16,884 nt of DNA, taken from UHGV virus genome UHGV-0068632. The stretch is one strand, 5' to 3'. The notes under the pieces were generated by a model that ran no database searches, had not been told where the DNA came from, and saw nothing but the letters and a program-made list of their open reading frames with translations. This DNA is from a virus. Of the stretch, positions 2,585-15,023 are shown piece by piece. The first letter of the stretch is position 1; each line of letters starts with the position of its first letter. The position numbers and the translations under genes are program-made.

Positions 2585-4924
2585 ATGGCTACCAGTGTAG
2601 GTACAATTTATTACGAAGTTGATGCAAAAACTGGTCAACTTCTCGTTGCACAACGACAGGCAGACCAGGCCTTTGACCGTATAGAGCGCGGCGCAAAACA
2701 GGCTGACCGCCAGGTAAACACCCTGAAAACATCCATCAAGGCACTGACCAGGGTTATCCATTTGCTAATTGCTGCCGAGGCTGTGCGCCAATTTATGGAT
2801 ATGGCGGAGCAAGCCAAAATGCTTCGCGTAAAAATCAAATTGCTTACAGGTGAAGCGGAGGCAACGGAACGGGTTTTCAACAGACTGAAAGAAATATCAA
2901 AAGAAACAGGCCAAAGCCTCAAGGATACTGGTGCCCTGTGGCAAGGTCTTGCTATATCGCTAAAAAACACATCCGCCACAGAAGGCCAGGTGCTCAACCT
3001 GGTCAGCACGCTGCAAAAACTTGGTAACTTGGGCGGCGTGTCTGCGGAACAACTATCAAACTCCATGCTTCAGTTCCGCCAGGCTATTGATGCTGGCGTG
3101 TTGCAGGCGGAAGAGTTCAACTCAATACGTGATAACACCCCAACAATCATACAGGAAATGGCCCGACAGATGGGGTTATCTATGGGGCAGTTCCGCGCCG
3201 AAATGCTGGACGGCAAGATCACGGCTGAAAGGATGCTCAACGCGATCCAGGCGGCTACGCAGGAAACAAACGAGAAGTTTGCACAGTTACCGCGCACGTC
3301 CGGTATGGCTTTTAATGAGCTTAAAGTCGAGGTGATGGGACTTGTCGAACAACTTGATGATCTTTTCGGCATATCAGATGGCGTTGTGTCAGCTATCGAC
3401 TTAATAACTGGTGGCGTTGAGGGATTAGGTAAAGGCGCAAAATTCGCCGCAACCTGTTTCAATACACTAAAAACGGCTGGCAGTGAGTTTATCGACATGT
3501 TTGATGATGTTGCTGTTAAAGCTGGTGAGGTGGCGGAAGAGATTATCAGGATGGTAACGCCAATCAAAGCGCTAATGGATGGCTACAAATGGATGAAGGA
3601 GATCATTGATAAACGCAAGAATGAGCTAAACAGCAACAACGAAAAGAAATTCGGCCCTACAGTCGGTAAGGTCATGACGTTTGCAAATGACATCAAAAAT
3701 GCGACCGCCGCTTATGATGAGTTTATGCAGAAACAGGGTGAGGCTGATGACGGCAAGATCACCGGATTCGATCAGCCAGTTGGCAAGCCGAAAAAAGGGA
3801 AAAAAGACAAGAAATCTGAAGCTGATCGGCTTGGTGATGAAGGCATAAAAGTATCCGACCAGTACAACAAAGACGCCGCAGCTATGCGCAAAGCGTTAGA
3901 GAACGGCAAGGCCATTGATGCTGCATTCGCCCAGGGTAAAATCACTCTCCTTGAGTACCGCGCCGCGCAAAAAGGGATAGGTAAGGAACTGAAGGAAGAA
4001 TTAGCGCAAATTCCGGTAGATGAATTGCGTGATAAATGGGCGCAAATAGTAAGCCCGATGGATCAGCTTAAAGGTGAGGTTGACCCTATCCAGCAGGTGC
4101 AGAATGAATGGGCCGTCCGTAAGCAAATGCTTATCGACCTGGGCGTTACTGAAGCGCAACAGAAACAGGAACTGTTAGCCTATGAGCAACAGATCCGTGA
4201 TCTGAAGTGGGAACAGTGGCAGGCACAAAGCGATACAAACGGCCTTATCGGTGATTGCGTTAATGGCCTAAAAGGTGGTATGAGCAATGCACTTGTTGGC
4301 CTGTTAAATGGTACTCAATCATTGAGTGATGTTTTTGCTAACTTAGGCAGCAATATCCTCGGGAATATCGGTAACAGGCTTTCAGACATAGCTGCAAACT
4401 GGATAGCAGATCAGATCATGATGGAAACGCAAAGCAAAGCGACTCAGGCAAGTACCACGGCGGGCGCGGTAGCGGCGCAAGGCCAGATTGCTGCGGCGGC
4501 GGCCCCGGCGGCGGCGGCAACAGCGGCGTCAACTGGCGGCGCATGGGCGGCGGCTGGTTCTGCGGCACTCACTGCGATCATGTCGCTGGCTACGTCAATT
4601 TTCGGCGGCGGTCGCTTTAATGGTGGTAGCGTTATTGGTGGCAATATGTACCGCGTAGGGGAACACAACAGGCCGGAGCTATTCCAGACATCTAACGGAA
4701 ATCAATATATGATCCCAGGCGAGAATGGCAGGGTTATTCCTGGGCGTGATATTGGCGGTGGCGGCGGCATTAGTATGCCTGTCAATATCAACATTCAGAC
4801 CACAAACGGATTTAGCGACGAAGACAGTCGCAGACTTGAGCAAACAATGGAACGTGTAGCAATGAAGATGATAACAAGGGAATCACAAAGACCTGGAGGA
4901 ATATTGCAACCGCGCCGCAAATAA
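2585..4924 (+). CDS. Tail tape measure protein, 779 aa
   Basis: Large ORF in the expected position, with RBS gagg 8 nt upstream. Has the mostly helical N-terminal region and the Ala/Gly-rich hydrophobic segment (QASTTAGAVAAQGQIAAAAAPAAAATAAS...) typical of tape measure proteins. Followed by gpM/L/K/I/J homologues. Confidence 0.9.
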   Translation: MATSVGTIYYEVDAKTGQLLVAQRQADQAFDRIERGAKQADRQVNTLKTSIKALTRVIHLLIAAEAVRQFMDMAEQAKMLRVKIKLLTGEAEATERVFNRLKEISKETGQSLKDTGALWQGLAISLKNTSATEGQVLNLVSTLQKLGNLGGVSAEQLSNSMLQFRQAIDAGVLQAEEFNSIRDNTPTIIQEMARQMGLSMGQFRAEMLDGKITAERMLNAIQAATQETNEKFAQLPRTSGMAFNELKVEVMGLVEQLDDLFGISDGVVSAIDLITGGVEGLGKGAKFAATCFNTLKTAGSEFIDMFDDVAVKAGEVAEEIIRMVTPIKALMDGYKWMKEIIDKRKNELNSNNEKKFGPTVGKVMTFANDIKNATAAYDEFMQKQGEADDGKITGFDQPVGKPKKGKKDKKSEADRLGDEGIKVSDQYNKDAAAMRKALENGKAIDAAFAQGKITLLEYRAAQKGIGKELKEELAQIPVDELRDKWAQIVSPMDQLKGEVDPIQQVQNEWAVRKQMLIDLGVTEAQQKQELLAYEQQIRDLKWEQWQAQSDTNGLIGDCVNGLKGGMSNALVGLLNGTQSLSDVFANLGSNILGNIGNRLSDIAANWIADQIMMETQSKATQASTTAGAVAAQGQIAAAAAPAAAATAASTGGAWAAAGSAALTAIMSLATSIFGGGRFNGGSVIGGNMYRVGEHNRPELFQTSNGNQYMIPGENGRVIPGRDIGGGGGISMPVNINIQTTNGFSDEDSRRLEQTMERVAMKMITRESQRPGGILQPRRK

Positions 4925-5251: not shown

Positions 5252-5506
5252 TCACTTATGGCAACCGCGAACGCCAGACAATTCATTGAATTTATGGTGT
5301 TCAACAATCACCCACTCTTTCAGATCCTGGCTATAGACTCGCCAGTCTAAATTGGCGCGGAAGGCGTAGCCGTAACCGTCTTTCAATTTTTTGGGTGACG
5401 CATTCTTGTTTAAAAACGCGTTCAAAAGTTCCTTTGCTTTTTTGACTACATGTCCCGGCGCGTTTTTCTGTGCTTTCAGATTTTTGTCAATCGCTACCAG
5501 TTTCAT
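5252..5506 (-). CDS. Basic 84-aa protein, tentatively RelE/ParE-superfamily-like (candidate toxin or mRNA interferase)
   Basis: Complete ORF in the track. Net charge about +9. The segment KKLKDGYGYAFRANLDWRVYSQDLKEWVIVEHHK resembles, by eye, the beta-strand core and C-terminal His/Tyr region of RelE/YoeB/YafQ-type toxins. This is pattern recognition only, not an alignment. Confidence 0.55.
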   Translation of the reverse strand: MKLVAIDKNLKAQKNAPGHVVKKAKELLNAFLNKNASPKKLKDGYGYAFRANLDWRVYSQDLKEWVIVEHHKFNELSGVRGCHK

Positions 5507-5523
5507 AACTCACCCCATCATCC

Positions 5524-5678
5524 TTAGTTAAGTGCCTTCAGGAAGAAGTCCCGGTATTCATCTTCTTTTGCATTCATCATGAATTGACCGTATTTGAATG
5601 CGTCGTCGAAACCCTTAACGATTGCTATTTCCACTTGTTCGAATGCGTTGTTTAGCATTACCACTACATAGCGTTTCA
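5524..5678 (-). CDS. Small hypothetical protein, 51 aa (MKRYVVVMLNNAFEQVEIAIVKGFDDAFKYGQFMMNAKEDEYRDFFLKALN), possible partner of the 84-aa protein
   Basis: Strong RBS aggagg 6-7 nt upstream of the ATG at 5678. The track's longer 76-aa version starting at 5754 runs through the promoter motif and has no RBS, so the internal start is preferred. Lies 17 nt upstream of the 84-aa gene. Confidence 0.55.
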
Positions 5679-5744
5679 TTTTGGGCCTCCTTCGTTGGTA
5701 CTGCTTTTCTTCTTGCTTTCTATATACATCTTGATGCGTGATAT

Positions 5745-5830
5745 GTGAAGCCATTTTGTAAACTAGCTATAATCATTGTGATGAAGATCTCATTTTTTGC
5801 GTAGAATCGCGTAAAAGTATATACAAAATG
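5745..5830. promoter_or_regulatory. Divergent promoter/operator region carrying the shared motif pair
   Basis: gtgaagccattttgta at 5745-5760 is identical over 16 bp to 2528-2543. A perfect TATAAT lies at 5768-5773 and a GATC at 5786-5789. The motif recurs in reverse orientation as tatacaaaatg at 5820-5830. Confidence 0.4.
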
Positions 5831-5848: not shown

Positions 5849-6202
5849 ATGCCTGAAGTGTTCCGATGGACACCACAAAGAAGCTACAGCGTAAACAGTG
5901 AGCCTAACGTGTCTGTCATTAAGCTGGGTGATGGGTATGAACAGCGCCAGACAAAAGGGATTAACCCTTTACTTGATAGCTACAGCCTGGTTTTTAAAGG
6001 CACAAGCGCCGGATGCGGTGACGCCGGAAACGTGGCGCTCCAAGTTGACGCATTTTTAAGGGCGCGTTGCGCGGTCGAGGCGTTTTACTGGACTCCATCA
6101 ACTGACGGGGTGCAAAGGCTTTTTGTATGCAGAAAGTGGAGCATGACGAAAGACGGCCCGGTATGCACGCTAAACGCAACTTTTGAGCAAGTTGTCAATT
6201 AA
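5849..6202 (+). CDS. Minor tail protein, lambda gpM-like, 117 aa
   Basis: Matches my recollection of lambda gpM along its length: FRW near the N-terminus, GDGYxQR, WTP, CxKWS, and the C-terminal FEQVVN. RBS ggggga 4 nt upstream. Confidence 0.9.
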   Translation: MPEVFRWTPQRSYSVNSEPNVSVIKLGDGYEQRQTKGINPLLDSYSLVFKGTSAGCGDAGNVALQVDAFLRARCAVEAFYWTPSTDGVQRLFVCRKWSMTKDGPVCTLNATFEQVVN

Positions 6203-6215
6203 TGGAGGTGTCAAT

Positions 6216-6401
6216 ATGTATGCTATTTGTGTAGTGGACCGCACGGGCGCTTTTACATTGTTTGACGACTATGAAATCAACGATCTTACTGTAAAGGCTG
6301 ATAATGGCGAGATCTGGTATCTTCATGATGTTGGTGACGGGTATGTCGGATGCAGATCGAGAGAGGGTAGGGAAGTTTTATTTTTACTTGATGGCGTATA
6401 A
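6216..6401 (+). CDS. Small hypothetical protein, 61 aa, between the gpM-like and gpL-like genes
   Basis: RBS ggaggtg about 6 nt upstream of the ATG at 6216. The track start at 6183 has no RBS. No counterpart in the lambda M-L junction, so probably accessory. Confidence 0.55.
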   Translation: MYAICVVDRTGAFTLFDDYEINDLTVKADNGEIWYLHDVGDGYVGCRSREGREVLFLLDGV

Positions 6402-6406
6402 ACACG

Positions 6407-6433
6407 ACCCCGCGCGAAGCGGGGTTATTATTA
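6407..6433. terminator. Bidirectional hairpin terminator
   Basis: ACCCCGC-gcgaa-GCGGGGT at 6407-6425 followed by TATTATTATT. The same 19-mer occurs as an exact reverse complement at 14606-14624. Confidence 0.6.
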
Positions 6434-6547
6434 TTCCATTTCCATTAACGCTATATTTTCTGCTATCGTTTTCCAGTCCAGATCTACAGCATGAACACCA
6501 AATACTATCAATCCCATTGCGATTAGTGCTAAAACTTCGATTTTCAT
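6431..6547 (-). CDS. Small putative membrane protein, 38 aa (MKIEVLALIAMGLIVFGVHAVDLDWKTIAENIALMEME)
   Basis: Found by hand. RBS gtgagg 6 nt upstream of the ATG at 6547. The hydrophobic N-terminal segment predicts a single transmembrane helix. The stop overlaps the terminator tail. Confidence 0.45.
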   Translation of the reverse strand: MKIEVLALIAMGLIVFGVHAVDLDWKTIAENIALMEME

Positions 6548-6638
6548 AATCAACCTCACTTAATTAAGAAAGGCATAAACGATGGCAATCGCGCCAGCCA
6601 CTACCAAAACATTTCGATCACTTCGTCTACTTTATTGA

Positions 6639-6842
6639 TTAAGGTAACTCCACTTCGTTAAATGTAACAAGCACCCCTTGATTTTCTTTATTTATAATTA
6701 TGAAGGCATTAATTGAAGGCAGACATCTTTCCACGCGGTAAACGTCACCAATATCTAAACTGTAATATTCTGTTAATTCTCTATTGTTCCCTTTAGCAAA
6801 ACCCGTAAACCTAACCATTTTTTGACCGTCGTACTTTAACAT
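6639..6842 (-). CDS. Hypothetical protein, 67 aa, cassette 3
   Basis: ORF in the track. RBS agga 6 nt upstream of the ATG at 6842. Lies 9 nt downstream of the preceding gene's stop. No family recognised. Confidence 0.65.
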   Translation of the reverse strand: MLKYDGQKMVRFTGFAKGNNRELTEYYSLDIGDVYRVERCLPSINAFIIINKENQGVLVTFNEVELP

Positions 6843-6850
6843 ATACAGTC

Positions 6851-7099
6851 CTATAGGTTATCACGCAGATAATTAACGCCTTTGTCAGTGACGAATGAGT
6901 GATTAACCTGGTTTTCATCCGTCATGATGATGAATGACTTTTCCTGTAGGTATTTCGCTTTTGGGTACAGCGTTAAACAGACCTGGTACAGTATCCCGCG
7001 CTCAATCAGCAAATCAATAAATTCGTGCTCATGATAACCGACGAGGCGGGCGGCTTGTTTCAACGTGTACACATAATCGCCGTGATTGCGCCGCCCCAT
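6851..7099 (-). CDS. Hypothetical protein, 82 aa, possible helix-turn-helix DNA-binding protein
   Basis: ORF in the track with RBS aaggcgg upstream. The segment YTLKQAARLVGYHEHEFIDLLIERGIL has the spacing of an HTH motif of the excisionase/AlpA-like type. Judged by eye only. Confidence 0.6.
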   Translation of the reverse strand: MGRRNHGDYVYTLKQAARLVGYHEHEFIDLLIERGILYQVCLTLYPKAKYLQEKSFIIMTDENQVNHSFVTDKGVNYLRDNL

Positions 7100-7108
7100 G
7101 TTGCCGCC

Positions 7109-7456
7109 TTATTTATCGAATGCGCCCAGGTTATCTATGCAGAAGTCTTTCGCAGCTTTTTCGTATTCGCGTTTTGCTTGCGGATCGTCTGCCGGGAAAC
7201 CTTTTGCGTGTATTTCACCAGGGCAAGACTGATCCATAGAATCAGCAAATTCAACATTGACGTTAAAGTTAATATCTTTCGGATTCATGTTTTCCACCTC
7301 ATCAATTATCTGCACCGGATTAGCGGCATATTTCACTGGATGGCCTAAACTACATTCAAGAATCCTTCCTTCTTCCAAAGCTGCCTCTTCGCTATCAAAT
7401 AATCCGAAACACTCCTTGCAACCACTTAACCACACATCAAGACTATATTTTTGCAT
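7109..7456 (-). CDS. Acidic hypothetical protein, 115 aa, cassette 3
   Basis: ORF in the track. RBS gagagg 8 nt upstream of the ATG at 7456. About 23 Asp/Glu against about 11 Lys/Arg (net charge near -12). Contains a CxxC pair (CKEC). No family recognised. Confidence 0.7.
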   Translation of the reverse strand: MQKYSLDVWLSGCKECFGLFDSEEAALEEGRILECSLGHPVKYAANPVQIIDEVENMNPKDINFNVNVEFADSMDQSCPGEIHAKGFPADDPQAKREYEKAAKDFCIDNLGAFDK

Positions 7457-7468
7457 TTCGTTAACCTC

Positions 7469-7624
7469 TCATTTGACAGGTTCGATTCTGTACCCCAAAA
7501 CGCGTTCGTCTTCAGCGAGTAATAGCGCGTCAGTCAGTGCCTCGCCTTCGTCTTTATACAGAGCTACAGTCATTTCCCTGCCACCTGACAGGAATACCTT
7601 CAACCTCCACACCTTATCAGCCAT
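7469..7624 (-). CDS. Small hypothetical protein, 51 aa (MADKVWRLKVFLSGGREMTVALYKDEGEALTDALLLAEDERVLGYRIEPVK), first gene of cassette 3
   Basis: Strong RBS ggagg 6 nt upstream of the ATG at 7624. The track's 76-aa version starting at 7699 has no RBS and extends into the promoter region. Stop lies 12 nt upstream of the next gene. Confidence 0.55.
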   Translation of the reverse strand: MADKVWRLKVFLSGGREMTVALYKDEGEALTDALLLAEDERVLGYRIEPVK

Positions 7625-7628
7625 CTCA

Positions 7629-7739
7629 CACCTCCGCGCCATTTTGTTAACTGTGCTTCCGTTTGAGTAAAATATACATATTGTATAAACCGCGATCAAT
7701 CCATTTTGGTATGATTTAGCGTGACGCAGATCACAAAAT
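7629..7739. promoter_or_regulatory. Divergent promoter/operator region carrying the shared motif family
   Basis: Motif variants at 7629-7641 (ccattttgttaac), about 7669-7681 (catattgtataaa) and 7701-7715 (ccattttggtatgat, containing the extended -10-like TGGTATGAT). agatcacaaaat at 7728-7739 is identical to 15004-15015. Confidence 0.4.
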
Positions 7740-7753
7740 CAGAAGGTGAGAAA

Positions 7754-8458
7754 ATGCGCAATATACCTACAGAGATGATTATTGATTCCGTGGACGCTGG
7801 TGTGGGCGCGGTGATTGACTTGTTCGAACTGGACTTGTCGCCCCTGGGTGGCGAGGTTATCCGCTTCCATTCCGGCGCGAATGGCTATTACGGCCCGGTT
7901 ATCTGGAAGGGATTAACTTACAACAGCTACCCGATCGAGGCTACTGGCTTCGAAATGAAAAACGAGGGCGTTTATTCGCGGCCTCAAATGGTTGTAGCCA
8001 ATATCGGCGGGCTAATCACAGGGATGAATAACGACTTCAACGACCTGCGAGGAATGAAGGTTACGCGCCGCCAGGTGGAAGTAAAATACCTGGACGCCGT
8101 TAACTTCCCAAACGGCAATCCAGACGCAGATCCATCTATTGAGGCTGTATCTTTTTACGTCGTGGAGGCCATGAGCGAGGAAACAGCGGATCAGGTGCAA
8201 TATGAGCTGTCAACGCCAATTGATGCTGATAAGGCCGTTATCCCTGGGCGCACCATCCTTGCTGACGTTTGCCAGTGGCAATACAGAGGCGACGGGTGTA
8301 TGTACGCTGGCGGACCAGTAGCAAACGATAAAGACGAGCCGACAAGCGATCCTAAAGCCGACAGATGCAGCCACCGTCTAAGCGGTTGTCGTTTGCGTTT
8401 CCCGCGTCCAAATCCGTTACCGATTTCCTGTTTCCCTGGTTCCAGTAAGGTAGGTTAA
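7754..8458 (+). CDS. Minor tail protein, lambda gpL-like, about 234 aa
   Basis: Extended match to my recollection of lambda gpL: TGFE, SRPQ, GMxxDxxxL, VTRRQV, FLDAVNFPNGN, AVxPGRxxLAxxCxWxYRGDxC, CSHRLSGCRLRF. The ATG at 7754 follows gaaggtgag; the track's start at 7721 is a GTG inside the conserved leader motif. Confidence 0.9.
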   Translation: MRNIPTEMIIDSVDAGVGAVIDLFELDLSPLGGEVIRFHSGANGYYGPVIWKGLTYNSYPIEATGFEMKNEGVYSRPQMVVANIGGLITGMNNDFNDLRGMKVTRRQVEVKYLDAVNFPNGNPDADPSIEAVSFYVVEAMSEETADQVQYELSTPIDADKAVIPGRTILADVCQWQYRGDGCMYAGGPVANDKDEPTSDPKADRCSHRLSGCRLRFPRPNPLPISCFPGSSKVG

Positions 8459-8460
8459 TC

Positions 8461-9192
8461 ATGGTAATGGAAGACAAAATGTTGCGTTATGCCGCCGCGC
8501 ATCCGTTTGAAGAAGTTTGCGGACTGGTAATAGATAACGAATATTTTTACCCGTGCGCTAACGTGTCTGAAACGCCCTACAACAGCTTCAAAATTTCGCC
8601 GGACGATTACATCAAAGCTGACGAATTGGGCGTTATAACCGCCGTTTTTCACTCTCACGTTGATGATATTCCGGTATTGTCGGCACGGGATCGACAACAG
8701 CAGGTTATTTCAGGACTACCCTGGCTTTTGTATTCAGGCGGAAGGATCAGGAAATTCCGTCCGGTAGCGCACCTGTTAGGCAGAAAATTTGAACACGGGA
8801 AAACAGACTGCTACGCGCTTTTCCGCGACGCCTATCACCTTTGCGGCGTGGATCTGCCTGACTTCGAGCGCCTTGATGGGTGGTGGTTGCGTGGTGAAAA
8901 CCTGTATTTAAAAAACTTGCCTCTAAACGGGTTTTTCCAGGTTGACGCTAAAAGCATACAGCCTGGAGATGTAATTATCCGGCAGCCGTTTAAAGGCGCG
9001 GACCCATGCCACGCGATGATTTACCTGGGCGATAACACTGTTTTGCATCATGACAATGCCGGACTGCTAAGCCGCCGCGAGCAAATGCGGCCCGCTTATG
9101 TTCGACAAACGCATTCAATATGGAGATCTGATAAATGCTCAAATTTAGATTTACGGGCAATCTTCGAAGATATTACAGCAAAGTGTGTTTAA
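8461..9192 (+). CDS. Tail assembly protein, lambda gpK-like, with MPN/JAB and NlpC/P60-like domains, 243 aa
   Basis: N-terminal EEVCGLV plus HSHVDD...S..D, a JAMM-type metal-binding motif. C-terminal half has a conserved Cys (KTDCYALFRDAY) and His residues (HAMIYLGDNTVLHH), as in NlpC/P60 hydrolases. Lambda K has the same two-domain layout. Confidence 0.9.
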   Translation: MVMEDKMLRYAAAHPFEEVCGLVIDNEYFYPCANVSETPYNSFKISPDDYIKADELGVITAVFHSHVDDIPVLSARDRQQQVISGLPWLLYSGGRIRKFRPVAHLLGRKFEHGKTDCYALFRDAYHLCGVDLPDFERLDGWWLRGENLYLKNLPLNGFFQVDAKSIQPGDVIIRQPFKGADPCHAMIYLGDNTVLHHDNAGLLSRREQMRPAYVRQTHSIWRSDKCSNLDLRAIFEDITAKCV

Positions 9193-9665
9193 ACGTTGAA
9201 ACGCCAGCGCAAGGACTTCGCTTGTTGACCGCGCAGAATCAGGAATTCAAGAAGGCGTTTTTAAATACACCTTTGCGTTTACGAATTTCCGGGAAAGATT
9301 ACGACGAAAAGACCGCGCCCGCTGCGGTTAATAGCAAATATCCAGATGGGACTACGGTAATTATTGCGCCAATAGTGGAAGGTGGTATTGCAGGGATCGG
9401 TGTGGTCGGTTGGATTATGATCGGAATATCAGTTGTTAGTGTCGCATTTTCTATTTTCATGTCTCGCAACATGAAGGTGAAAACATCATCAGAAAGCGCA
9501 CAGGATAACACCATAACAAACAACAGTTACACCAGCATAGAAAACAGGGTGGGCCAGGGTAGACCAGTGCCAATTTTATTGGGTGAAATGAAAGTAGGTT
9601 CAAACGTCGGATCGTTAGGCATAGACACAACAAACAATAAAGACGCCTTAGACGTTGTAAGTTAA
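9135..9665 (+). CDS. Tail assembly protein, lambda gpI-like, 176 aa
   Basis: N-terminus LKFRFTGNLRRYY aligns with lambda I (ICLYGDLQRFG). Has the Gly/Ala-rich hydrophobic stretch and LLGEMKVGSNVGS, corresponding to lambda LYGEMRVGSRVVS. Overlaps the 3' end of the gpK-like gene by 58 bp in another frame, as in lambda. Confidence 0.85.
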   Translation: MLKFRFTGNLRRYYSKVCLNVETPAQGLRLLTAQNQEFKKAFLNTPLRLRISGKDYDEKTAPAAVNSKYPDGTTVIIAPIVEGGIAGIGVVGWIMIGISVVSVAFSIFMSRNMKVKTSSESAQDNTITNNSYTSIENRVGQGRPVPILLGEMKVGSNVGSLGIDTTNNKDALDVVS

Positions 9666-14606: not shown

Positions 14607-14632
14607 CCCCGCTTCGCGCGGGGTTTTCTTTT
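14607..14632. terminator. Bidirectional intrinsic terminator between the J-like gene and the lipoprotein gene
   Basis: CCCCGC-ttcgc-GCGGGG at 14607-14623 followed by TTTTCTTTT. Lies 8 nt after the J-like stop codon, and the minus-strand lipoprotein stop overlaps the T-tract. Confidence 0.65.
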
Positions 14633-14879
14633 AGTAGTTAGCTACACAATTCGACGGGCTACCTATGCGGCGCATGTTGTGATCGAGTTCATGACACCAT
14701 TGACCAGTATATGGCAGTTTTTCAGTGTCATATACAAGATGACCATTAGCATCATAGACGATTTCTTGTGGAATCACTCCGCTATTTGGCAGGTTATGCA
14801 ATGCAGCTTCTTTGTCAACAGCGCAACCAGTAAGAGCAACAGCCGCAGCGAATAAAACCACTTTGAACATGTTTTTCAT
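14631..14879 (-). CDS. Small outer-membrane lipoprotein, 82 aa, in the Cor/Llp position (candidate receptor-blocking superinfection exclusion protein)
   Basis: N-terminus MKNMFKVVLFAAAVALTGC has a signal peptide and lipobox L-T-G-C with Ala at +2. RBS gagga 6-7 nt upstream. Encoded convergently just downstream of the receptor-binding J-like gene, where T1/phi80-type Cor and T5 Llp genes are found. Assigned by position and type, not by sequence homology. Confidence 0.7.
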   Translation of the reverse strand: MKNMFKVVLFAAAVALTGCAVDKEAALHNLPNSGVIPQEIVYDANGHLVYDTEKLPYTGQWCHELDHNMRRIGSPSNCVANY

Positions 14880-14975
14880 TTTTTAATCCTCGTTCTTGTT
14901 AGCTCATCCGGTTCATCCGGTGGCTTAAATATCCGACAAAACCACATTTCGTATATTGATATAAATCAATAAATA

Positions 14976-15023
14976 CATTTTGTATAAGTCAAAAATGTAA
15001 CATAGATCACAAAATGGTAGAAT
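14976..15023 (+). promoter_or_regulatory. Candidate promoter and conserved leader for the tail fibre gene
   Basis: cattttgtataa at 14976-14987, catagatcacaaaat at 15001-15015 (GATC at 15005-15008), and the extended -10-like TGGTAGAAT at 15015-15023, about 34 nt upstream of the ATG at 15057. Confidence 0.45.

Follow-up and report, generated by a model that had tools for sequence, protein, structure and literature searches.

The locus described here has its closest known counterparts in two groups of phage genes, the morons and the genes for KilAC (ANT) domain proteins. For the morons, we use the criteria of Juhala and Hendrix as summarized in PMC3594210. HK97 gp15 is an independent unit in the tail operon of a temperate siphovirus, with its own promoter and terminator, a distinct GC content, and a small envelope protein as its product; this superinfection exclusion protein belongs to the YebO family, and its gene, the only one of the unit, varies in presence. 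Among the proteins with a KilAC domain (Pfam PF03374), CreP (103 amino acids, aa), which consists of this domain only, acts bacteriostatically, turns A. baylyi and E. coli cells into filaments, and co-precipitates FtsZ. The KilAC domain of AriS, a Listeria protein, suppresses the SOS response upon over-expression, probably through RecA. Expression of phi11 Gp07 leads to filamentation, and the KilA-C domain of this protein retains its growth inhibition in E. coli. We analyzed a stretch of 16,884 nucleotides (nt) of phage DNA (UHGV virus genome UHGV-0068632; the whole stretch is called the window below) which harbors, between the tail genes gpM and gpL, five small genes on the opposite strand, one of them encoding a predicted stand-alone KilAC protein. 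This cassette is an autonomous, conserved, non-structural operon that lies antisense inside the tail-gene operon, and we tentatively read it as serving the manipulation of the host cell.

The window is the tail module of a temperate coliphage of the mEpimmI (mEp021-like) group, with a lambda-like order of genes (tube protein, DUF6246, tape measure at 2585–4924, M, L, K, I, J, and side fiber). The mEpimmI phages are Nus-dependent, non-lambdoid temperate coliphages (PMC11893012), and according to a report, they match lambdoid phages in frequency among human fecal isolates. Both plus-strand genes that flank the cassette were identified by Pfam profiles, gpM as Phage_min_tail (102.9 bits) and gpL as Phage_tail_L (240.5 bits). 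The cassette region shares 95% identity with Escherichia phage MagusPhagus and 83–87% with mEp013, mEp010, mEp044, mEp515, mEp021, and mEp554, and it was found in 35 of 5,426 complete E. coli genomes. In mEp021 its counterpart is gp74 to gp71, listed in the record as three hypothetical proteins and a "putative antirepressor". The features of the cassette, with the genes named after the lengths of their products, are the following:

7671..7699, minus strand: sigma-70-type promoter (TTGATC at 7699–7694, 17-nt spacer, TATATT at 7676–7671), from a consensus scan and conservation
7687–7673: palindrome TATACAATATGTATA of 15 bp, within the promoter spacer and overlapping the −10 element
7469..7624, minus strand: g51, 51 aa, predicted beta-beta-alpha-beta protein with the Shine-Dalgarno sequence GGAGGTG; phrog_29559; orthologue of mEp021_74
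7456–7109, minus strand: g115, 115 aa, N-terminal domain plus C-module
7289..7456, minus strand: N-terminal domain of g115, residues 1–56, from an alignment of 32 homologues and an AlphaFold2 (AF2) model
7286..7300, minus strand: internal Shine-Dalgarno sequence GAGGTG (7300–7295), 6 nt, and the ATG of Met57 (7288–7286), a candidate second start
7109..7288, minus strand: C-module of g115, residues 57–115 and stop codon, acidic and nearly invariant
6851..7099, minus strand: g82, 82 aa, putative stand-alone KilAC/ANT protein (PF03374; phrog_5689); orthologue of mEp021_71 ("putative antirepressor")
6639..6842, minus strand: g67, 67-aa orphan, optional, with a weak match to phrog_14327
6431..6547, minus strand: g38, 38-aa hydrophobic peptide, optional, with the Shine-Dalgarno sequence GAGG 7 nt upstream
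6406..6426, both strands: bidirectional intrinsic terminator, a GC-rich hairpin with T-runs on both strands

An earlier note, made from the letters of the window, had already described an operon of five minus-strand genes between gpM and gpL, from 7624 down to 6431. Indeed, the list of open reading frames (ORFs) and the sequence confirmed all five ORFs in place, with products of 51, 115, 82, 67, and 38 aa in the order of transcription. The 91 nt given there for the last gap are also correct, but the first three gaps are 12, 9, and 8 nt rather than 9–12 nt. A Shine-Dalgarno-like sequence precedes each of the five genes, that of g67 being weak. The description of the last gene as a hydrophobic peptide is borne out by its sequence, and the view of the whole as a non-structural accessory operon held up in the profile searches, in which none of the five proteins matched a tail or assembly family of Pfam or PHROG, although four of the five matched PHROG families. 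In addition, gp71–74 of mEp021, the virion of which had been analyzed by mass spectrometry, are not among the genes that its record annotates as virion structural proteins.

To describe the variation of the cassette, we used 53 related loci with 46 unique M-L intervals, which were retrieved via g115, so that g115 is present by construction. The g82 gene was found in all 46 intervals, g51 in 45, the g38 family in 34, and g67 in 11. The g51/g115/g82 trio always occurred together, and no empty M-L site lacking the trio was found among the mEpimmI intervals. The ratios of nonsynonymous to synonymous polymorphism (pN/pS), calculated from 10 to 44 unique homologous sequences each, were 0.34 for g51, 0.36 for g115, 0.13 for g82, 0.21 for g67, and 0.28 for g38 (28 unique sequences). 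Because each gene is thus under purifying selection, all five are real genes and not chance ORFs. The GC content of the cassette is 41.6%, compared with 45.5% for the window and 49.6% for the tape-measure gene. By gene, the values are 34% for g67, 35% for g38, 46% for g82, and 50% for g51, so that the contrast is modest for the latter two.

By these features, the cassette resembles a moron: the in silico evidence gives it a separate promoter and terminator, its base composition differs, and it is inserted between M and L, two genes that are adjacent in lambda. The presence/absence polymorphism of morons is seen for g67, g38, and the variable insertions after g115, whereas the trio is fixed. 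The likeness to the HK97 gp15 moron extends to the place in the tail operon of a temperate siphovirus and to the small envelope protein. However, gp15 is one variably present gene, whereas the cassette comprises five genes with a fixed core of three, and no similarity of its proteins to YebO was found with Pfam. A moron-type accessory unit that contains a known KilAC domain is, as such, of an already known kind.

The most constant member of the trio, g82, is 88–99% identical across the 46 unique loci. It matched PF03374 with 28.3 bits (gathering cut-off 25.3 bits; E = 2.3e-6), residues 10–82 aligning to profile positions 23–105 of 108, which identifies it at the profile level as a stand-alone KilAC/ANT domain protein. 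Of the two motifs noted for CreP and P1 KilA, TxKG is present near the C-terminus (TDKG), and the AKxLxL-type motif is only approximate, with AARLVG in its place. Outside its own group, BLAST places it closest, among annotated proteins, to the C-terminal parts of antirepressors from Cronobacter and Hafnia phages (about 35% identity). No match of the HTH_XRE type was found with Pfam, and no significant sequence match in PDB. The domain is shared with CreP, with the C-terminal domains of AriS and phi11 Gp07, and with P1 KilA and Ant, the TxKG motif with CreP and P1 KilA, and CreP, like g82, is a KilAC domain alone. As differences, g82 is distant in sequence and short (82 aa, compared with 103 aa for CreP), it carries no N-terminal Bro, AntA, or KilA-N domain, and its toxicity, targets, and antirepressor activity are putative. 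In a published pangenome analysis, a KilAC-like protein appeared among the genes of probable phage function, in a set for which manual and automated core-gene analyses disagreed.

The two genes upstream of g82 appear to be related to each other. For g51, the AF2 model has a mean confidence (predicted local distance difference test, pLDDT) of 88.2 and consists of strands at residues 6–12, 17–23, and 42–49 with a helix at 26–37. For the N-terminal domain of g115, the pLDDT is about 90 for residues 1–50, with strands at 2–10, 13–20, and 42–49 and a helix at 23–37. The two predicted secondary-structure maps are nearly superimposable, and the sequences could be aligned by BLASTP (E = 0.002, 32% identity over 50 aa) and by hhalign (E = 0.004, 48 columns). 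Thus, the models and alignments indicate that g51 and the g115 N-domain are probably paralogues that share a beta-beta-alpha-beta fold. All 50 homologues of g51 come from E. coli phages or prophages. In E. coli RefSeq prophages, they carry the NCBI/PGAP name "transporter" (e.g., L008 4033–4221 and L009 3799–3966), for which neither NCBIfam nor Pfam gives support. Because g51 is a soluble 51-aa beta-beta-alpha-beta protein without an NCBIfam or Pfam match, this name looks like a propagated annotation error.

In contrast to the C-terminal half of g115, its N-terminal ~56 residues are hypervariable, with several allelic types among the 32 homologues and identities down to 43–47%. Positive selection on this domain was considered and rejected: pN is 0.28 and pS is 0.61, and the resulting ratio of 0.46, with saturated pS, points to old, shuffled alleles rather than to demonstrable positive selection. 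The two halves also differ in nucleotide diversity, which is 0.29–0.45 in the N-half, drops to 0.09 in the area of codon 57, and remains at 0.05–0.09 in the C-half; the values for g51 are 0.23–0.31. Residues 71–115 are almost invariant (ADSMDQSCPGEIHAKGFPADDPxAKREYEKAAKDFCIDNLGAFDK; pN/pS 0.15), and nearly all of the 24 invariant columns of g115 lie in the C-half. In the AF2 model, residues 56–88 have low confidence (pLDDT < 50) and residues 92–112 form a helix.

The C-module is very rare. An exhaustive search by profile against 1.84 billion representative proteins yielded only 13 matches, which include proteins of 50–64 aa that start exactly at the position of Met57. These stand-alone C-module genes were found in the loci L053, L054/55, L060/61, and L056–59, and their products have net charges of −8 to −14 over 50–60 aa. 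Three diverged versions, in L053, L054/L055, and L060/L061, have different neighboring genes. In each of these three, the stand-alone unit has its own promoter (TTGACA...TAAGAT/TATGAT), the C-module gene is followed after 10–12 nt by a gene for a 45–47-aa homologue of g38, and a terminator follows. One of them lies on a 120-kb contig (L054) that is about 66% identical to rV5-like myoviruses over one third of the query. Judged from these occurrences, the C-module and the terminal peptide form a portable gene pair that is also carried by virulent phages. A more diverged C-module, P0111 (net charge −14), is encoded on the 58-kb Sashavirus-like contigs L056–L059 (gene at L056:5001–5171). There, a 59-aa gene comes after P0111, and next lies the gene for an unrelated single-helix membrane peptide of 42 aa, which in a third phage lineage loosely echoes the layout of module and peptide. 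Searches of the GTDB species genomes gave no match for the peptide and one weak match for g115; a DNA pattern for the stand-alone pair retrieved only L053 again from IMG/VR and three chance matches from metagenomes.

Within g115, the C-module may have kept a start of its own. In 41 of 43 related loci, the sequence (G/A)AGGTGGA or AAGGCGGA is located 6 nt before the ATG of Met57; the two exceptions are L050, which has GAGGA and is the only locus with a differing peptide at this site, and L038, which has CTGGTGGA. The diversity of 0.09 at the Met57 start compares with 0.29 and 0.22 in its flanks. It is therefore plausible, from this pattern of conservation, that the 59-aa C-module is translated separately from the internal start. 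In the simplest history, a duplicate of g51 would have acquired a formerly stand-alone module gene at its 3' end, with the ribosome-binding site of the latter retained.

The distal part of the cassette is optional. For g67, only nine homologues were found in 5.8 billion clusters, eight of full length with 87–97% identity and one 37-aa fragment, and there was no match in PDB, Pfam, NCBIfam, or PADLOC. The gene is inserted between g82 and the peptide gene, which in most loci without g67 follows g82 after ~10 nt, and g67 would be a recent optional insert. The g38 peptide reads MKIEVLALIAMGLIVFGVHA followed by VDLDW..., with VHA ahead of this point as a possible cleavage motif. The members of its family begin with MK(I/M)..., have a hydrophobic core of 14–17 residues, and carry an invariant GVHA ahead of D.DW (invariant core EVLAL..GL.V.GVHA.D.DW). 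By sequence, g38 fits a short membrane anchor and a Sec signal peptide with a cut after VHA equally well. One further peptide-like match, in L094, was discarded as spurious, being a fragment inside an unrelated 146-aa ORF after a gpL-like gene. The region of the 91-nt gap and g38 has no unusual RNA structure (z = −0.67), and no Rfam match was found in 6300–7800.

Insertions are also frequent at the junction of g115 and g82, a hot spot that carries a gene of 77–93 aa in five loci, including mEp021_72 (L002 2881–3108). In L033, pieces of an HNH + AP2-like homing endonuclease are found at this junction (at about 623–1108 of the M-L interval).

A consensus scan found the cassette promoter, but by itself the scan was not above chance (6 sites, compared with 6.7 expected). 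In 38 variants of the upstream sequence, the −35 element, the spacer length, the −10 element, and the core palindrome TACAATATGTA are nearly invariant, with the core variants TACAGTATGTA and TACAATACGTA in four of the 38, and the nucleotide diversity is 0.07, compared with 0.23–0.45 in the neighboring coding DNA. Between its repressor gene and gp17, which is N-like, mEp021 has an early rightward promoter region with which the cassette promoter shares the block AAAATGGATTGA, a spacer of 17 nt, TATATT, and TCAAAnGGAAG, and a related 16-mer is found directly upstream of the mEp021 repressor gene. This likeness argues, if anything, for control by the repressor. No LexA box (CTGT-N8-ACAG, at most one mismatch), as would be expected for an SOS-controlled antirepressor of the Gifsy or 186 Tum type, was found in 7630–7720; the window contains three LexA-type sites, compared with 4.5 expected, and none of them is near the cassette promoter.

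At the other end, the hairpin at 6406–6426 serves both strands, closing the cassette on the minus one and the gpM-p72 segment on the plus one, and an equivalent site is annotated as a terminator in the records of mEp021, mEp010, mEp013, mEp044, mEp515, and mEp554. As the hairpin is bidirectional, late transcription from gpM to gpL must read through it and then run antisense across the cassette. The mEpimmI group encodes a Q-like regulator.

The cassette is one of four on the minus strand that are interleaved with the plus-strand tail genes, at 1335–2324, 5252–5754, 6431–7624, and 14631–14879. The first encodes a 219-aa VasI-like protein (PF11319) and a 106-aa protein. The second encodes a 76-aa protein and an 84-aa ParE-like toxin (PF24732; 32.1 bits, cut-off 24.4 bits), likely a toxin-antitoxin pair. 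The last encodes the 82-aa exclusion lipoprotein Lpp of the mEpimmI paper. The 10-mer ATACAAAATG, with at most one mismatch, occurs 12 times in the window, compared with 2.2 expected, and none of 200 shuffled sequences reached 12. The sites (including 2507–2516, 2535–2544, 2564–2573, 5752–5761, 5821–5830, 7677–7686, 14945–14954, and 14976–14985) are concentrated at the divergent junctions upstream of all four minus-strand cassettes, and four copies form the palindrome TACAWWWTGTA. In mEp021, one copy of the motif (11926) lies at the early rightward promoter and another (11173) precedes the repressor gene. Possibly, the cassettes have in ATACAAAATG a common operator or promoter element.

A possible reading, which we favor with due reserve, is that the cassette is a regulated, moron-type accessory operon for host manipulation (kil-type), which is expressed early and acts on the host cell and not on the virion. 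At infection or induction, host RNA polymerase would transcribe it from the conserved promoter that resembles the early rightward one and contains an operator-like palindrome. Later, the Q-antiterminated late transcription that runs through the cassette in the opposite direction would silence it. By analogy with the studied KilAC proteins, the constant effector g82 might bind a host target, e.g., the FtsZ division machinery or RecA, and cause a transient arrest of division or of the SOS response. The two upstream proteins would be paralogous beta-beta-alpha-beta mini-domains, the second of which is fused to the acidic 59-aa module that is probably also made alone. The C-module and the terminal peptide would serve lytic infection, as suggested by the virulent phages that also carry the pair, plausibly at the cell envelope, and g67 would be a later, optional addition. 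Expression timing, targets, internal initiation, and phenotype are those parts of this reading that we infer.

Several observations weigh against this proposal or parts of it. The g82 match exceeds the Pfam cut-off by only 3 bits, no annotated antirepressor domain comes closer to g82 than about 35% identity, and the functions of KilAC proteins are heterogeneous, AriS at its native level having no measurable effect on the SOS response. The statistics for the paralogy of g51 and g115 are weak (hhalign probability 8%), and internal initiation at Met57 is inseparable, except in one locus, from the conservation of the peptide (K/E)VE(E/D). The C-module occurs without the peptide in 12 of the 46 loci, and in a related contig (L063), this place is taken by the peptide gene without the C-module. 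The likeness of the promoter to the early rightward region of mEp021 consists of a few short blocks, and the operators of Rep021 are undefined. Finally, ATACAAAATG is also located upstream of the Lpp exclusion gene and of the ParE-like cassette, that is, genes of a kind normally expressed from the prophage, which argues against the motif marking repressor-controlled early promoters.

Prophage expression is indeed central to another explanation, which we regard as doubtful but worth serious consideration, namely that the cassette is a moron for superinfection exclusion or defense, in which the membrane or exported peptide, perhaps together with the acidic module, blocks the entry of incoming phage DNA or another step, as HK97 gp15 does from within a tail operon. 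The anatomy of the locus would fit, with its own promoter and terminator, lower GC content, and a site between tail genes, and so would the small hydrophobic envelope peptide kept in 34 of the 46 loci and the company of three further antisense cassettes in the tail module, one of which encodes the Lpp lipoprotein that excludes phages when expressed, and another the ParE-like pair. The presence of the pair in rV5-like relatives is compatible with exclusion as well, since virulent phages also encode exclusion proteins, such as Imm and Sp of T4 and Llp of T5. The stand-alone pair shares with T4 imm/sp and T5 llp the organization as a small sigma-70-promoted unit with an envelope-targeted peptide; however, there is no sequence relationship, and the g38-family peptide has no lipobox (VHA, then D.DW) and is not a lipoprotein. 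Against exclusion, the peptide is dispensable (12 of 46 loci lack it) while the trio is fixed, and no similarity to the YebO/gp15, Sie, Imm, or Cor families was found with Pfam, PHROG, or PADLOC. Moreover, KilAC-only proteins are growth-inhibitory when expressed and therefore fit poorly with constitutive expression from a prophage, and one repressor immunity is already common to all mEpimmI phages. In a more far-reaching reading, the C-module ("SMDQxCPGE") and the exported or membrane peptide would constitute an undescribed two-gene phage system that acts in lytic infection and moves among unrelated E. coli phages, i.e., temperate mEpimmI siphoviruses, relatives of the rV5-like virulent myoviruses, and, in a diverged form, Sashavirus-like contigs, with, in the temperate lineage, the fusion to a head domain and two products of one gene by way of the retained internal start. 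In our estimate, this joint claim is unlikely. Such a system could be, e.g., a new mechanism of exclusion or of envelope takeover, and the duplicated hypervariable domain could be its specificity or regulatory head.

The earlier note had proposed a candidate anti-defense or exclusion locus, likening the acidic g115 to DNA-mimic anti-restriction proteins and the small helix-turn-helix (HTH) protein beside it to an autoregulator of anti-defense loci, which would be of the anti-CRISPR-associated (Aca) type. The anti-defense explanation, by which g115 or its C-module neutralizes a host defense (restriction-modification, RecBCD-like, or other) by DNA mimicry or binding while the N-domain tracks variable targets, we consider rather improbable. 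The marked acidity of g115 was corroborated (23 D+E, 11 K+R, net charge −12, pI 4.39) and is a property of the family (mean −9.6, range −13 to −2 in the 32 homologues) as well as of the stand-alone modules; a hypervariable domain beside a constant module is a pattern of arms-race proteins, and in virulent phages the module lies within a region of individually promoted small genes. Like Ocr, ArdA, and Arn, g115 is small and strongly acidic. Unlike these DNA mimics, it is predicted to be disordered over half of its length, with the charge split between a variable domain and a short, mostly disordered module rather than presented on a rigid DNA-like surface. Neither Pfam nor a fold search gave a match of g115 to DNA-mimic families, a PDB search with its profile returned nothing significant, and Pfam and fold searches found no homology or fold match to anti-CRISPR (Acr) or anti-defense proteins. 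The five proteins had no match in NCBIfam and, like their neighbors, none in PADLOC-DB (E ≤ 1), so that no known family was found in Pfam, NCBIfam, or PADLOC, no dedicated anti-defense library having been searched. The CxxC pair that had been pointed out in g115 exists (C13-x-x-C16, in the N-domain), but it is kept in only 3 of the 32 homologues, and a zinc site was accordingly rejected; nor does the pN/pS of the N-domain, with its saturated pS, demonstrate positive selection. Acr-Aca operons resemble the cassette in being short, in their small, fast-evolving, acidic proteins, and in one conserved member with an HTH-like segment. However, the supposed HTH-like 82-aa protein is in fact assigned to KilAC/ANT above the gathering score, it is internal (followed by g67 and g38, or by g38, in most loci) and not the last gene, and the location in a tail operon also differs. 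Its studied relatives point to interference with cell division or the SOS response instead of Aca-like autoregulation, and no positive evidence for the combination of a DNA mimic with such a regulator was obtained. Likewise, the statement that none of the five proteins is recognizable holds for the four without characterized relatives, but not for g82. A toxin-antitoxin or abortive infection-like module, in which the KilAC protein would be a bacteriostatic toxin checked by g51 and/or g115, appears very improbable: KilAC-only CreP does act as a toxin within a toxin module under repression, the members of the trio are closely linked and always co-occur, and the adjacent cassette is a ParE-like toxin pair, but g51 and g115 have no similarity to antitoxin families in Pfam, NCBIfam, or PADLOC, PADLOC gave no match, and at least three genes with frequent insertions between g115 and g82 are atypical for coupled pairs. 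That the genes encode virion or tail-assembly accessory proteins from the opposite strand is close to negligible as an explanation; only the location between gpM and gpL speaks for it, whereas the orientation against the late operon, the separate promoter and terminator, the missing structural annotation in mEp021 and missing structural family matches, and the location of the homologues of two genes in virulent phages, away from any tail module, all speak against it.

As far as the searched literature shows, the paralogy of g51 and g115, the fusion with a retained internal start, the "SMDQxCPGE" family, and the combination of this family with an exported peptide in both temperate and virulent coliphages are undescribed. 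At present, the operon, conserved as it is, is annotated only with the terms "hypothetical", "transporter", and "antirepressor". If host manipulation is its role, it would provide an E. coli model for a stand-alone KilAC domain in its native phage, and the tiny family of 13 among 1.84 billion representatives would, together with the exported peptide, be a compact candidate for a new function in host takeover, exclusion, or anti-defense. If the cassette has no phenotype, it is just another set of small phage orphan genes. The four antisense cassettes with a common motif also raise the question of co-regulation and of read-through by late transcription.

Two candidates close to the subject were not retained. 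A plus-strand ORF (7257–7670, 137 aa), antisense to g51 and the g115 N-domain, was judged to be non-coding, though it is free of stop codons in most relatives (median 127 codons), because its third positions coincide with the wobble positions of the sense genes and its pN/pS of 0.49 exceeds the value in the sense frame, and also because its product is rich in Ser and Leu and its length is inconstant (77 to 237 codons). Ipe of mEp021, which induces haemolysis and according to a review is an ORF with forms of 83, 82, 77, and 72 aa, was considered as mEp021_71 or mEp021_72; this lead was rejected because in the GenBank record ipe is mEp021_29 (17562–17795), far from the cassette.

On the plus strand next to the cassette, a conserved 72-aa gene (6183–6401; phrog_3249, function unknown; mEp021_70) shares 20 nt with the end of gpM and stops just short of the bidirectional terminator; it appears to be part of the late operon. 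Farther downstream, gpK (8461–9192, plus strand; NlpC/P60 and JAB-like domains) and gpI (9135–9665, plus strand) overlap by 58 nt, as they do in relatives. Two of these, mEp021 and mEp515, carry an inserted HNH endonuclease gene between gpI and gpJ.

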